DNA of 46,626 bases from contig JAHITG010000292.1 of assembly GCA_018817865.1 (NCBI GenBank), positions 1 to 46,626 of the forward strand, in the 5' to 3' direction. The notes beneath the pieces are model-generated. The model saw only the letters and a list, made by a program, of their open reading frames with translations. It had not been told where the DNA came from and did no database searches. Positions 12,374-44,436 of the stretch are shown here, in pieces. This DNA comes from Spirochaetota bacterium. Lineage in GTDB: Bacteria; Spirochaetota; JAHITG01. Each line of letters opens with the position of its first letter. Position 1 is the first letter of the stretch. A program made the position numbers and the translations under genes.

Positions 12374-12401
12374 TTGACTAATAGGAAAAATATGTTATAT
12401 T
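12374..12401 (+). promoter_or_regulatory. Sigma70-type promoter TTGACT-N16-TATATT for the fimbria-like operon
   Basis: The -35 is TTGACT at 12374-12379 and the -10 is TATATT at 12396-12401, preceded by TGT (extended -10-like). The hexamers and spacing are identical to three other sites in the window. Confidence 0.5.
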
Positions 12402-29108: not shown

Positions 29109-31481
29109 ATGAAAGGTTTATGGAGAGCATTATATTTTCTGATAATACTTATATTTTATTCAGGTCTGGCTGCACAGGATTATTCGACTTCTGTAGGCAG
29201 GTTTCTCCTGCTTTCGGGAGGAGCCAGGGCCGGTGCAATGGGCGGAGCCTACTCTGCCGTGGCAGAAGATGCCTCTACCATAAACTGGAATCCGGGCGGC
29301 CTGGCCTTTATTAAGGGATATGAGATATCCTTTATGCATATGATGTATGATGAAGATATATTATATGAAAATGCTTCCGCTACGCTGCCTCTGGATTTCG
29401 GAACATTTGGACTGAATTTTATTTACATGGGAATGTCACCTCTGGCTGAAATGGCAAATGGGGACCTGACCGGTAAGGAGCTGGATTATTCTGATATGGC
29501 TATCTCTCTCTCCTTTGGAAGGGAGTTCTTTAATATGGTCGGGATCGGTGCCAATGTAAAATATATAAAAAGCTCAATGGGAATTTCTGACACGGCAGAT
29601 TATTTTACGGGACAGGGCATAGCCTTTGATATCGGCCTTCTTTCAAGGTTCGATCTGTTCAGATTCTATAATAAAATCGAAAAGAACCTGCGCGTGGGGA
29701 TTTCTCTTCAGAATATCGGGACCGGCCTTAAATACATTACATCAACCCATTCCTTTCCTACGGTCATTAAACCGGGCCTTTTTTATAAACCGATCAAGTA
29801 TGCAGAAGTGGTCTTTGATTATAATATCATCAGTGATTCTCCCAATACCATCAATATCGGGCTGGAAGCCCTTCCGGAATGGATCCTGTCCCCACGTGCC
29901 GGTATTAAGATAAAAGATTCCATCAAGACGTTTACATTGGGAGGAGGCTTAAAATACGGATTTGGAAGCTTCTTTTTTCAGCTGGATTATGCCTATAATA
30001 CGGATGATTATTTTAAAAATCATATGATCAGTATAGCGATCAGAAAATTCACGGCATCTTTAGCGGAATTCGGTTTCGGGAATATCATTATAAAAGATGT
30101 TTTCCCGGCCATGTATAAGTATTATACAAAGAACTCGGTATCGGATGTGGAAGTGAAGAATGATACTAATATTCCTATTGAAAAGATAAAGGTCTCCATG
30201 CTTGTAAATAAGTATATGGATTTTCCTTCCGAAAGCAAGGAGGTTGAGCGGTTACCCTCCGGTGATACTATTGTTGTAAAGCTTCCTGCTGAATTTAACA
30301 ATGAAATTCTAAATATATCCGAAGATACCCCCATGCAGGCGCAGATTAAGATAGATTATGTGGCTGAGGGAAAACGGCATCAGATCTCTCAGACAAAATC
30401 ATTTAAACTCTTTAACCGGTATGCCATGACTTGGGATAATTTTGATAAATTGGCAGCATTTGTTACACCAAAGGACCCGCCTGTAAAAGTTTTTGCCCGG
30501 GGCATGGTCCAGCAGTACAGCACCATAAGGATCAAGGACCTTCCCCGTTCTATTGTACAGGCCTCCGTTATTTTCAATGCTTTAGGAGCTGTAGGTATCA
30601 CTTATGTCCTTGATCCGCAGAGCCCCTACAGGCAGAGGCAAAAGGCAACCGAGATCATAGATCAGATCCAGTATCCGCGGGATACCTTGCGGTATAAAAC
30701 AGGGGATTGTGATGACTGCTCCGCCCTTTACTGTGCTTTGCTGGAGAATATAGGACTGAACACGGCATTTATTGATATTCAGGATCACATCTTTATGATG
30801 TTTGATACCCAGGTACCGGAGGAAAATGCTTTGGAGGAGTTCGGTAAGAGGGACCTCTATGTTATTAAAGATGGTACCGCGTGGCTTCCCATAGAGACGA
30901 CAATGTTCAAAAAGGGATTTTCAGATGCCTGGATCACGGCAGCGAATGAGTATCTTGAAGCTTCGGAAAAAGGCATTGTTACGATCGTTGATGTTAAAAA
31001 AGCCTGGGAGACATTCTATCCCGTAACATTACCTGATATTCAGTGGGAACCGCCTTTCCCTTCAAAAAGCAGCATGGAGCTTTTTCTAAATAAAGACAGG
31101 AGGAGATTCGGCAGTCTGGGGGTAAAAGGATTGATCAATGAATTACGGATACAGCTTGCCAGAAATCCGCGTGATGTGGACATATTGAACAGGCTGGCCG
31201 TAACGTACGGCAGGATCGGCAAGGTAAAGATCTCTCAGAGGTATCTGGAAATGATATTGGAGCAGAAGCCCAATAAAGCAAAATATTTTAATAACCTGGC
31301 CAATACCTATTTTCTCGATAATAAATTAAATGAAGCGCTTATTTACTATAAACAGGCGATCAAACTTGAACCGGATAACCCGAACTACAGGATCAATATC
31401 TCTAACCTGTACAGCGTCATGGGGGAGAAGGACAGGGCTGAAGAAGAGATGAAGAAGGCTGAAAAACTTCTTGAAGAATAG
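29109..31481 (+). CDS. Fusion protein: PorV/PorQ-family barrel + middle beta-rich region + transglutaminase-like Cys-protease core + C-terminal TPR repeats (790 aa)
   Basis: The RBS is GAGGAGGA, and the gene starts 16 nt after the giant cargo gene. The barrel signature is GARAGAMGGAYSAVAEDASTINWNPGGLAFI. The TGase-like core is GDCDDCSALYCALLENIGLNTAFIDIQDHIFMMFD...GTAWLPIETT (Cys, His, acidic residue). The TPR segment is AKYFNNLANTYFLDNKLNEALIYYKQAIKLEPDNPNY. Confidence 0.75.
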   Translation: MKGLWRALYFLIILIFYSGLAAQDYSTSVGRFLLLSGGARAGAMGGAYSAVAEDASTINWNPGGLAFIKGYEISFMHMMYDEDILYENASATLPLDFGTFGLNFIYMGMSPLAEMANGDLTGKELDYSDMAISLSFGREFFNMVGIGANVKYIKSSMGISDTADYFTGQGIAFDIGLLSRFDLFRFYNKIEKNLRVGISLQNIGTGLKYITSTHSFPTVIKPGLFYKPIKYAEVVFDYNIISDSPNTINIGLEALPEWILSPRAGIKIKDSIKTFTLGGGLKYGFGSFFFQLDYAYNTDDYFKNHMISIAIRKFTASLAEFGFGNIIIKDVFPAMYKYYTKNSVSDVEVKNDTNIPIEKIKVSMLVNKYMDFPSESKEVERLPSGDTIVVKLPAEFNNEILNISEDTPMQAQIKIDYVAEGKRHQISQTKSFKLFNRYAMTWDNFDKLAAFVTPKDPPVKVFARGMVQQYSTIRIKDLPRSIVQASVIFNALGAVGITYVLDPQSPYRQRQKATEIIDQIQYPRDTLRYKTGDCDDCSALYCALLENIGLNTAFIDIQDHIFMMFDTQVPEENALEEFGKRDLYVIKDGTAWLPIETTMFKKGFSDAWITAANEYLEASEKGIVTIVDVKKAWETFYPVTLPDIQWEPPFPSKSSMELFLNKDRRRFGSLGVKGLINELRIQLARNPRDVDILNRLAVTYGRIGKVKISQRYLEMILEQKPNKAKYFNNLANTYFLDNKLNEALIYYKQAIKLEPDNPNYRINISNLYSVMGEKDRAEEEMKKAEKLLEE

Positions 31482-31501
31482 TGACAGGAACTTTTACACA
31501 C

Positions 31502-31529
31502 TTGACTTTGCGGCTGAATTTAATATATT
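31502..31529 (+). promoter_or_regulatory. Sigma70-type promoter TTGACT-N16-TATATT reading into the IR-flanked structured element
   Basis: The -35 is TTGACT at 31502-31507 and the -10 is TATATT at 31524-31529. Confidence 0.45.
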
Positions 31530-31545
31530 ATAAGTAAGAGGCAAA

Positions 31546-31724
31546 TCAGGATATCGCTAAATTAAAAGTAATGTAGTAAGGGGCTTGTGCGGAGCCTCCC
31601 CGAAGGGGGTAGCCCCGCTTGAAATAAGCTATTTTCACTCCATAGACGGGCCTACTTGTGCCCGCAGGGTAAAGGCATTTGATGCATTTTTTGTCAAATA
31701 AATATTAATTTAGCGACAACCTGA
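31546..31724. repeat. 179-bp element bounded by 20-bp inverted repeats (18/20) with GC-rich internal hairpins; candidate sRNA, MITE or invertible switch
   Basis: TCAGGATATCGCTAAATTAA (31546-31565) pairs with TTAATTTAGCGACAACCTGA (31705-31724). Inside are a hairpin GGGGCT...AGCCCC (31580-31616) with an inner CCCC-GAA-GGGG, a second hairpin GGGC...GCCC (~31648-31663), and GCATTTGATGC followed by TTTTTT (31675-31692). Confidence 0.6.
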
Positions 31725-31863
31725 AAGACATCAGGATTGCAAGAAGATTTTGTAACGGGGAATTACTCTTTTGCCAGTTTGATTGACACTTCAGATGATT
31801 TGAATGTAATAGTTTAAGAATATTTATCACGGGTATAATATACAGTATACAAGGAGTACTGAA

Positions 31864-32772
31864 ATGTTCAGAAGATGGATGTTTCAAAAAGACGGCCAGA
31901 CCCTGGGTCTTGTAGCCCTCATTATTCTGCTTTTAGGTGTGATCGCTTTTTTTATCTATAACATAGGTGATTTTTATATAAAAGCGGTAAAGGAACAGAG
32001 TGCCGTGGATGCGGCCATGATCTCCGGTGCTTCGGTACAGGCGGATTATTTGAACATGATCGTACGAAATAATAGAAATACTATACGAGATTATTATATA
32101 CTTATCTGGGCCTGCCGGATATGCGAATTGATTTGTATTCCGGTATTTCCATGCTGCGGGAGGATCTGTTATGTTACTACTCCCCTTATGCATATTATAG
32201 AAAAAAGGTTTATGCTTAAACAGATGACATTGGCGCAAATGGCAGGTATCAAAGCGAGGAGCGAGGCATTAAGTGCTTATAGGAGATCGGGCGGTAAAGG
32301 GAATTTGGAAATATTGCTTTCCTCCGACCCGTATCCTTCAGGGGATGACAGGATGCTTTTCCCCAACACATTGAGACTCAGTATGATCTATTCAAAGATG
32401 CCCAAGACCAGGTTTAGTCAAAATAAAAAGACTTTCTGCGGTTTAGGGGAGAAAAAGAGGAACTCTATGTATGACTGGAAGGGAATGATAAGCTGGATGA
32501 GGGTCCAGGGGAATTACCAGGGTTTTTATGATAAAGCCGGGCCTTTTATCAAGACGATCCCGGAAAGTACTCATTTTAAATTTAAACCCGTATCAAGCTG
32601 GTTTTCTAAAACTCAGAAGATCAGTGTACATTCAGCTGCCCGGCCCTACGGCGGGCATGTTCATGATAAATATTCGTATGGCTTAGGCTGGCCCATCCTG
32701 GTTGGCGGCGGTGAAGATACATTTACGGCAAAATTGGTTCCAACAAAATCATTGTTATACAGGTGGTGGTAA
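31864..32772 (+). CDS. TadG-like pilus (pseudopilin) protein with Cys-rich insert
   Basis: The RBS is AAGGAG. The N-terminus KDGQTLGLVALIILLLGVIAFFIYNIGDFYIKAVKEQSAVDAAMISGAS fits the Tad/TadG N-terminal pattern (G-x4-hydrophobic helix...Q.A.DAA.L.GA). It contains the cluster CRICELICIPVFPCCGRIC. Confidence 0.6.
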   Translation: MFRRWMFQKDGQTLGLVALIILLLGVIAFFIYNIGDFYIKAVKEQSAVDAAMISGASVQADYLNMIVRNNRNTIRDYYILIWACRICELICIPVFPCCGRICYVTTPLMHIIEKRFMLKQMTLAQMAGIKARSEALSAYRRSGGKGNLEILLSSDPYPSGDDRMLFPNTLRLSMIYSKMPKTRFSQNKKTFCGLGEKKRNSMYDWKGMISWMRVQGNYQGFYDKAGPFIKTIPESTHFKFKPVSSWFSKTQKISVHSAARPYGGHVHDKYSYGLGWPILVGGGEDTFTAKLVPTKSLLYRWW

Positions 32773-44056: not shown

Positions 44057-44077
44057 CTTTATCAGGAAAGCAAATAT

Positions 44078-44104
44078 TGTAGCAAGGGGCTTTAGCCCCG
44101 CAAT
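44078..44104 (+). repeat. Short GC-rich hairpin repeat TGTAGCAAGGGGCTT-TAGCCCCGC, related to 31572-31618
   Basis: 31572-31586 TGTAGTAAGGGGCTT and 31610-31618 TAGCCCCGC are the same two halves, separated there by a 23-nt GC-rich insert. AAGGGGCTT occurs again at about 44160. Confidence 0.7.
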
Positions 44105-44436
44105 TAATGGAGTCGGTTTTTAACATTATCACTTTTTGGATCGCCCCAAACACCCCCAAAGGGGCTTTCTACATTCATTTCTTTTAAAGCACAATAAAAA
44201 CAATTTGACTCCTCTTTCATATCCTGAAAGATTAATAAGTACTATAATGAAAAATAAACTATGTATAATGATAATAAAGTTTTCCTTATTATCATTTATA
44301 TTAAAAAACAGCAATAAGGTATATTGATTAGGATAACAATATTTTTTTTTATTTTTGGGGATATCCCCTGGTTTTTATTTATTAAGAATTGTTTAACTTA
44401 ATTGATAGATGCCGATTATATAATTATGTTAAATTG

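Follow-up and report, generated by a model that had tools for sequence, protein, structure and literature searches.

The 177-bp element at positions 31547-31723 of the window (the whole stretch of DNA analysed, 46,626 nt of contig JAHITG010000292.1, here C44, from the Spirochaetota assembly GCA_018817865.1) is very probably a non-autonomous transposon of the kind termed MITE (miniature transposable element with inverted repeats), with ends in common with an IS1182-like insertion sequence (IS) at C117:1-1646 and a core formed by a doublet of repetitive extragenic palindromes (REPs). We make this assignment because the element belongs to a multi-copy family, shares its terminal repeats with the IS and is flanked, like other intact copies, by 4-bp target duplications. 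Short size, terminal inverted repeats, target duplications and ends shared with an IS are the defining features of MITEs (PMC3184786, PMC10969869). The initial annotation of this segment had placed the MITE reading beside two others, a small RNA (sRNA) or structured leader and an invertible switch; it is the MITE reading that our data strongly support, and the element is in our view an ordinary kind of selfish repeat and no dedicated switch or RNA gene.

The genome is a 3.43-Mb metagenome-assembled genome (MAG) of 539 contigs, 91.6% complete, and the family copies described here are drawn from this one fragmented MAG only. It has four FlaA genes (PF04620), compared with none in 14 control genomes, as would fit a spirochete. 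When the element was searched against its own genome by blastn, the copy count that the initial annotation had put forward as a check on the MITE reading, 16-22 other places were matched. Iterated nhmmer extended the family to 111 loci, with the caution that our copy counts depend on regular expressions and on repeated nhmmer rounds, in which a search may stray from one hairpin repeat to related ones. Just two of the 111 loci lie inside open reading frames (ORFs) of at least 150 aa, as against the 84% of the genome that such ORFs cover. Four paralogues (C320, C414, C28 and C536) align with the window copy over its full length in a five-copy alignment, and we refer to this group as the W-type, which comprises four full copies with CAGGYTATCGC arms (C44, C320, C414 and C28), C536 with a diverged CAGGCTGTTGC arm, and partial copies. 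The recurrence of this architecture at many loci is far beyond chance.

With regard to its boundaries, the element had been described as a 179-bp segment between 20-bp inverted repeats. The inverted repeats are there, inside arms of 27 nt (31546-31572 and 31698-31724) that a repeat search found to be 81% complementary, and the segment is bounded by them as stated; its length needs correcting to 177 bp, the outermost pair (T31546/A31724) being part of a flanking 4-bp duplication (AAAT/AAAG) and lying outside the inverted repeat. This is within the size of less than about 300 bp expected of a bacterial MITE. The left terminal inverted repeat, CAGGATATCGCTAAATTAA, occupies 31547-31565 on the plus strand, and the right one, whose reverse complement is CAGGTTGTCGCTAAATTAA, was placed at 31705-31723 on the minus strand by the repeat search and the arm alignment; the arms are conserved in the sister copies. 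The left target duplication, AAAT (31543-31546), matches the right one, AAAG (31724-31727), at three of four positions. Identical 4-nt flanks were found in 17 of 19 intact elements bounded by arms of two types; in the remaining two, one of them the window copy, the flanks match at three of four positions. As a control, the next 4 nt outward never matched at three or more positions in any of the 19. Eight of the 17 perfect duplications are non-palindromic and are therefore unambiguous direct repeats.

A genome-wide search for the arms identified a pair on C117, 1,644 bp apart, both CAGGTTATCGCTAAATTGAC, enclosing a single ORF of 493 aa. This IS-like unit is 1,646 bp long and the contig starts at its end. 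Its product matches Pfam DUF772 and DDE_Tnp_1_6, both above their cut-offs, and aligns with the NCBIfam IS1182 model (NF033551) over positions 12-487 of 488 (233.8 bits, E = 4e-69); in having one ORF, these two domains, a full-length model alignment and terminal inverted repeats of about 24 nt, it resembles IS1182. The IS end CAGGTTATCGCTAAATTGAC agrees with both arms of the window copy at 17 of 20 positions and with the left arm of C28 at all 20. A genome search for further IS1182-like transposases that might serve the sister arm type (GGGYYTGTTGCCCAAA) returned only C117 and the edge of C456.

The interior of the element is not IS-derived; it is a GTAG-REP doublet like that of a REPIN (REP doublet forming a hairpin). 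REPs and REPINs are defined by a palindrome preceded by a GTAG or GTGG tag, an arrangement in inverted doublets, an extragenic location and a position flanking genes for REP-associated tyrosine transposases (RAYTs) (PMC3686654, PMC3733652, PMC3116915). The layout of the doublet is TGTAGYAAGGGGC-TTTA-GCCCCGC, an AT-rich spacer and an inverted GGGCC-TAAA-GGCCCTTGCTACA, with GTAG preceding each hairpin on its own strand. The initial annotation had seen two GC-rich hairpins here, which we confirm at 31580-31616 and 31648-31676, and had not recognised in them a REP doublet with nested loop inserts. The left unit (31573-31618, plus strand) is a class-1 GTAG REP (GTAGTAAGGGGC...GCCCCGC) with its tag at 31573-31576 and a stem of GGGGC (31580-31584) and GCCCC (31612-31616); its loop (31585-31611) is a TTTA that a nested hairpin insert with a CCCCGAAGGGG core has lengthened to 27 nt, in a position where the basal copy C28 has plain TTTA. 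An AT-rich spacer (31619-31645) that is conserved among the sister copies separates it from the right unit (31646-31687, minus strand), which is inverted and decayed: the GGGCC of its stem (31648-31652) has a partner reduced to GGC (31674-31676), and its GTAG tail reads ATTTGATGCAT, as compared with CCTTGCTACAT in the sister copies.

Relative to its sisters, the right REP of the window copy carries four substitutions that destroy GTAG and two of the five stem pairs, and our REP regular expression does not match it. The arms contain one A·A and one A·C mismatch, and the target duplication is one base apart. The window copy is thus old, and probably immobile.

Genome-wide, we counted 270 REP units in four classes (46, 106, 29 and 89 in classes 1 to 4, respectively), with GTAGYAAGGGGC-TTTA-GCCCCGC as the class-1 consensus. 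Inverted doublets number 62 (124 of the 270 units), and 13 of them are of class 1. A second member of the repeat superfamily, also with a class-1 REP doublet, is present in the window at 44067-44193, adjoining a HigB/HigA islet.

There are four Pfam Y1_Tnp matches in the genome, and tblastn added a fifth, broken gene. Three of these genes are associated with REPs: (i) a 161-aa RAYT on C332 (NF047646, 111 bits, cut-off 80) has class-3 REPs on both sides; (ii) a RAYT on C526, continuing in C140, is flanked by class-2 REPs; and (iii) the broken RAYT-like gene (C307:1394-1861), which contains one in-frame TAA, is interrupted by a class-4 REP (GTAGGGACAAGGCATGCCTTGTCCCTAC) that itself carries an insert, and is followed by an intact class-4 REP. 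C108 and C377 encode longer proteins with Y1 and helix-turn-helix (HTH) domains. The C108 protein is a 314-aa Y1 transposase (C108:915-1856) with a DnaA-C-like HTH tail, and is flanked by GGGGTCAGACCTTGAAA repeats (GGGGTCAGACC...) that fit the GGGGWSAS motif of the 'TIRYT' genes (PMC3733652). RAYT genes with their own GTAG REPs are also found in the relatives G001 and G003.

Class-1 REPs are not confined to this spirochete. The exact 23-nt class-1 REP GTAGCAAGGGGCTTTAGCCCCGC, either single or in inverted doublets, is present in the MAG of an unclassified 'bacterium' with a high GC content of 50-56% (MAG045, JBIOXX01...), and again in the metagenomes Ga0194125/6/7, Ga0194113, Ga0066903 and Ga0126369. 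Its presence in an unrelated lineage may be a sign that a RAYT/REP pair has spread horizontally. No RAYT adjoining class-1 REPs was found in MAG045 or in 34 metagenome loci.

Several observations weigh against our assignment of the element as an IS1182-related MITE with a REP core. Firstly, the 233.8 bits obtained by the C117 transposase fall short of the curated IS1182 cut-off of 270, so the IS is better described as a divergent IS1182 member or as belonging to a sister group. Secondly, in nine of the 17 perfect cases the duplicated sequence is TTAA, lying centrally in another palindromic repeat; since TTAA is self-complementary, these cases could represent either direct duplications or an outer inverted repeat. 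Thirdly, no RAYT gene flanked by REPs of class 1, the class of the window copy, was found in the assembly, which is 91.6% complete and broken into 539 contigs. Fourthly, the REP class inside differs among three MITE subfamilies, and this is hard to attribute to one act of capture. Lastly, the relatives are too distant to reveal an empty site or an insertion polymorphism: the element DNA gave only 30-40-nt, chance-level matches against 40 of them, and the 790-aa protein of the flanking gene reaches no more than 35% identity in genomes of the same family and has many paralogues there, making a synteny search for an orthologous empty site impossible. With regard to other assemblies, contigs of the Joint Genome Institute (JGI) metagenome Ga0180007 are 99.9-100% identical to MAG contigs, some of them extending beyond MAG contig ends that stop at REPs, and we regard Ga0180007 as the same population, either the source or a sibling assembly. 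The locus itself was not matched in other assemblies by an exact-protein look-up with the 302-aa Tad protein encoded just downstream of the element or by comparison of a left-flank 32-mer with metagenome contigs.

We infer that the DDE transposase encoded on C117 would act in trans, binding the CAGGYTATCGCTAAATT ends and transposing the element with a 4-bp duplication of the target. The class-1 REPs within would be the kind of repeat recognised by HUH/Y1 RAYT transposases, of which the genome encodes at least three, each with its own REP class. The element was inserted between genes, upstream of the Tad minor-pilin cassette and 17 nt past a probable -10 sequence.

In REP classes 1-3 the plain loop is TTTA or TTCA (143 REPs), and approximately 30 of approximately 176 closed-loop REPs of these classes have a longer loop that holds a 17-nt unit (CTTGTNCCCGNAGGG plus YA), which may point either way. 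The mini-stem of this unit shows compensatory variants (CCC/GGG, CTC/GAG and CCTCC/GGAGG). The right REP of the window copy provides a clear example: a 17-nt mini-hairpin (CTTGTGCCCGCAGGG plus TA) lies in its TAAA loop at 31655-31671 on the plus strand, with TA on both sides, and the other four of the five close copies have a clean 17-nt gap at this position, leaving the window copy as the only one with the insert. The left-REP loop of the W-type copies is also variable: it is plain in C28, contains the 17-nt unit in C536 and the unit in opposite orientation in C320, has a 23-nt insert in the window copy and, in C414, an insert of 43 nt that encloses another hairpin. Loop inserts of this kind are seen at C414:26131-26329, C298:1320-1518, C536:3920-4075 and C320:982-1138, and further modules nest within them, giving three to four levels of hairpin within one loop.

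When the unit is in the 'reverse' orientation, the dinucleotide after it repeats loop positions 3-4 in all TTTA cases and in three of seven TTCA cases, a pattern that suggests a 2-nt duplication at these inserts. The 'forward' class-2 forms (GTG...TATA/TGCA context) all share an extra C-to-G change, and the forward inserts may descend from one ancestral event rather than from independent insertions. There is precedent for REPs as insertion targets (PMC3184786, PMC5896051), and earlier work reported long loops that are self-complementary, as well as REP dimers lying within longer palindromes (PMC3733652). It is possible, if doubtful, that the 4-nt single-stranded loops of GTAG REPs (TTTA or TTCA) are landing pads for a 15-nt mini-hairpin (CTTGTNCCCGNAGGG), inserted in either orientation with a 2-nt (YA) duplication. 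Such mini-hairpins might arise incidentally when Y1/RAYT enzymes transfer strands into hairpin loops, and several rounds of this would produce the nested elements. If this is true, the CTTGTNCCCGNAGGG mini-hairpin would be among the smallest mobile DNAs described, and the composite elements would be substrates of two unrelated systems, DDE at the terminal repeats and HUH at the REPs. The precise and recurrent addition of a 17-nt hairpin to REP loops is also the part of our findings that is least covered by the literature surveyed.

We considered whether the element has been co-opted as a structured leader or sRNA controlling the Tad minor-pilin cassette, for example through RNase III cleavage of the duplex formed by the terminal repeats, attenuation at the REP hairpins or processing to an sRNA, and judge this improbable. 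It lies in the intergenic region 31482-31863, which separates a PorV-like/tetratricopeptide-repeat (TPR) gene from a Tad/Flp minor-pilin cassette. The first gene of this cassette spans 31851-32772 on the plus strand including its ribosome-binding site (AAGGAG, 31851-31856); it starts with an ATG at 31864 and encodes 302 aa that match Pfam Tad (PF13400) weakly (E = 0.004). The sigma-70-like promoter TTGACT-N16-TATATT reported by the initial annotation was recovered by our promoter scan at 31502-31529 on the plus strand, with a score of 10/12; it lies outside the element, ends 17 nt upstream of it and points into it. Exact matches to this motif number 45 genome-wide, compared with about 2 that we calculate would be expected from a GC content of 38.7%, and for this reason it is probably a real promoter type. 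It is found again in the window at 12374, 42340 and 44460, and looks like this organism's favoured strong promoter. Since the element begins 17 nt past the -10 of this probable promoter, the whole element is likely to lie within a 5' leader of approximately 330 nt, unless a weaker promoter-like site between the element and the Tad gene is the working promoter. This second site, TTGACA-N16-TGTAAT (31783-31810, plus strand; TTGACA at 31783-31788), was read from the sequence and was missed by the promoter scan on account of a G at -10 position 2. If the upstream promoter is used, the element would be transcribed in full as a long hairpin in the leader, and could alter mRNA processing or stability as Correia elements and other MITEs do. 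Co-transcribed MITEs can be cleaved by RNase III, as in the case of Correia, or can yield sRNAs, as in the case of QMITE1/2 (PMC10969869, PMC5896051).

The promoter and the folding of the segment are what a leader or sRNA has in its favor: the plus strand of a 199-nt segment folds at -62 kcal/mol, better than shuffled sequences (z = -3.3). However, the minus strand folds better still (-67 kcal/mol, z = -5.0), and such symmetry between the two strands is expected of a DNA palindrome. Known RNA families were ruled out by Rfam 15 scans, which the initial annotation had proposed: no match in the window reached the gathering score, and a search of 31400-31950 at E values up to 10 gave only chance-level matches (E ≥ 1). 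The small hairpin and T6 run that had been taken as terminator-like prove to be a T6 preceded by a stem of just 3 bp (GCA/TGC), an intrinsic terminator requiring a GC-rich stem of at least 5 pairs immediately before the T-run, and no terminator-like site was called in a scan of 31300-32000. Together with the adjoining TGTCAA (31692-31697), this T6 (31687-31692) forms a block (31687-31697) that is conserved in C320 and C414 and is neither a terminator nor a promoter; it is a conserved subterminal part of the family. The element has no coding capacity, its longest internal ORFs being 30-38 aa. Furthermore: (i) the decayed right REP and imperfect duplication of this copy fit neutral decay rather than selection; (ii) sister copies are usually upstream of promoters and not within leaders, several having a TTGACA promoter just 3' of them, as at the window locus; (iii) there is the second promoter-like site between the element and the gene; and (iv) covariation is of no help in separating RNA structure from constraints on the DNA, because terminal repeats and REP stems must stay complementary as DNA. 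What survives of the RNA reading is a leader that is possible only as a by-product of insertion; a dedicated RNA gene finds no support in Rfam.

A purely REPIN- or BIME-type (bacterial interspersed mosaic element) unit, moved only by a Y1/HUH RAYT, with the outer arms as an extended palindrome and the likeness to the IS irrelevant, strikes us as highly improbable. The core does have every REP feature (GTAG tag, GC-rich stem and inverted doublet), RAYT genes with cognate REPs are present in this genome and in relatives, and each arm subfamily has its own REP class. In addition, there is precedent for long palindromes that contain GTAG dimers and are never met with in an empty form (PMC3733652), and we likewise found no empty arm-dimers of the GGTGCCAGGTCTTAAG type and no empty GGTGCCAGGTCTTAAGACCTGGCACC palindromes in the genome. 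Arms of the GGTGCCAGGTCTTAAG type occur 63 times genome-wide, and related arms flank many 138-bp MITEs that sit at a central TTAA. Movement by a RAYT alone would leave unexplained why the arms agree, at 17-20 of 20 positions, with the ends of an IS that encodes a DDE transposase, and no class-1 RAYT was found in the assembly. The target duplications also speak against it. Transposition by Y1 enzymes (IS200/IS605 family) is not known to create such 4-bp duplications, and the non-palindromic direct duplications, perfect in all eight cases and matching at three of four positions in the window copy, are therefore difficult to accommodate.

We give next to no credence to an invertible, phase-variable promoter switch flipped by a recombinase encoded elsewhere, even though suitably long inverted repeats flank the segment, a TTGACA is present on its minus strand, the locus precedes surface-structure genes and single MITE copies are known to invert (Correia elements when stressed, PMC10969869; a single QMITE2 copy that differs in orientation between strains, PMC5896051), because (i) the repeats are the terminal repeats of the family and are present at many unrelated loci, (ii) the TTGACA, which the initial annotation had put at 31690-31695 and which in fact runs from 31697 to 31692, lacks a -10, and the scan of 31300-32000 called no promoter on the minus strand, (iii) no resolvase or integrase gene is present on the 46.6-kb contig C44, in agreement with the initial annotation, with PF00239 matched by one gene (C239) and PF00589 by two (C68 and C270) elsewhere in the genome, and (iv) Ga0180007 is colinear through the three sister copies compared (C533, C196 and C172), a weak point given that a consensus hides minority forms.

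The closest published analogue of the window element, as an IS1182-related MITE with a REP core, is QMITE2 of Coxiella burnetii, a 150-190-bp MITE with 24-29-nt terminal inverted repeats, flanking direct repeats and a GTAG REP core (Wachter et al. 2018, PMC5896051). Like our family, QMITE2 is located in intergenic or untranslated regions and can be transcribed; when truncated, its copies resemble simple REPs, and additional insertions are frequent in its REP. The two differ in the length of the duplication (7-11 bp in QMITE2, 4 bp here) and in the material inserted into the REP, which is a full IS1111 in QMITE2 and mini-hairpins of 17-27 nt here. They also differ in host, ours being an uncultured spirochete. 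Unlike QMITE2, the window element has a partner IS with the same ends in its genome (IS1182-like), and its core is a REP doublet.

REP/REPIN-RAYT systems (Bertels & Rainey 2011, PMC3116915; PMC3686654), reportedly described by Nunvar in 2010, share with our family the GTAG tag followed by a GC-rich palindrome, the frequent inverted doublets and the hundreds of extragenic copies. Another common trait is that a genome has several classes of REP, each of them on the flanks of a RAYT gene of its own, and in the GTAG super-family some REP families have long self-complementary loops or lie inside longer palindromes (Di Nocera 2013, PMC3733652). The window element departs from these systems in that its doublet is enclosed by terminal repeats of the DDE type and by target duplications, and in that no RAYT was found for its class. 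Correia (NEMIS) elements of Neisseria and other IS-derived MITEs are likewise 100-200-bp palindromes, situated between promoters and genes, with terminal repeats shared with an IS; when co-transcribed they form long hairpins that RNase III is able to cut, and they sometimes carry promoter hexamers (PMC10969869, PMC3184786). Correia elements, however, have a TA duplication, a site for integration host factor and proven promoters, in contrast to the TTGACA inside the window element, which has no -10.

For the annotation of the Tad locus, our assignment removes a candidate riboswitch, sRNA or phase switch. It also bears on the assembly, in that 15 of the 111 family loci lie less than 300 nt from a contig end; this suggests that the family repeats break assembly and offers an explanation for the fragmentation of the MAG. 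If the upstream promoter is used, the element would be a test case for the effects of MITEs on the leader of a pilus operon, and the family provides a natural series of copies in which REP loops have gained small hairpins at exact positions, a resource for work on the targeting of hairpin loops. More broadly, a survey published in 2013 listed no GTAG REPs in Spirochaetes, reporting only CGTC repeats there (PMC3733652), and the present work documents a rich system of REPs, RAYTs and IS1182-related MITEs in an uncultured, AT-rich member of that phylum.

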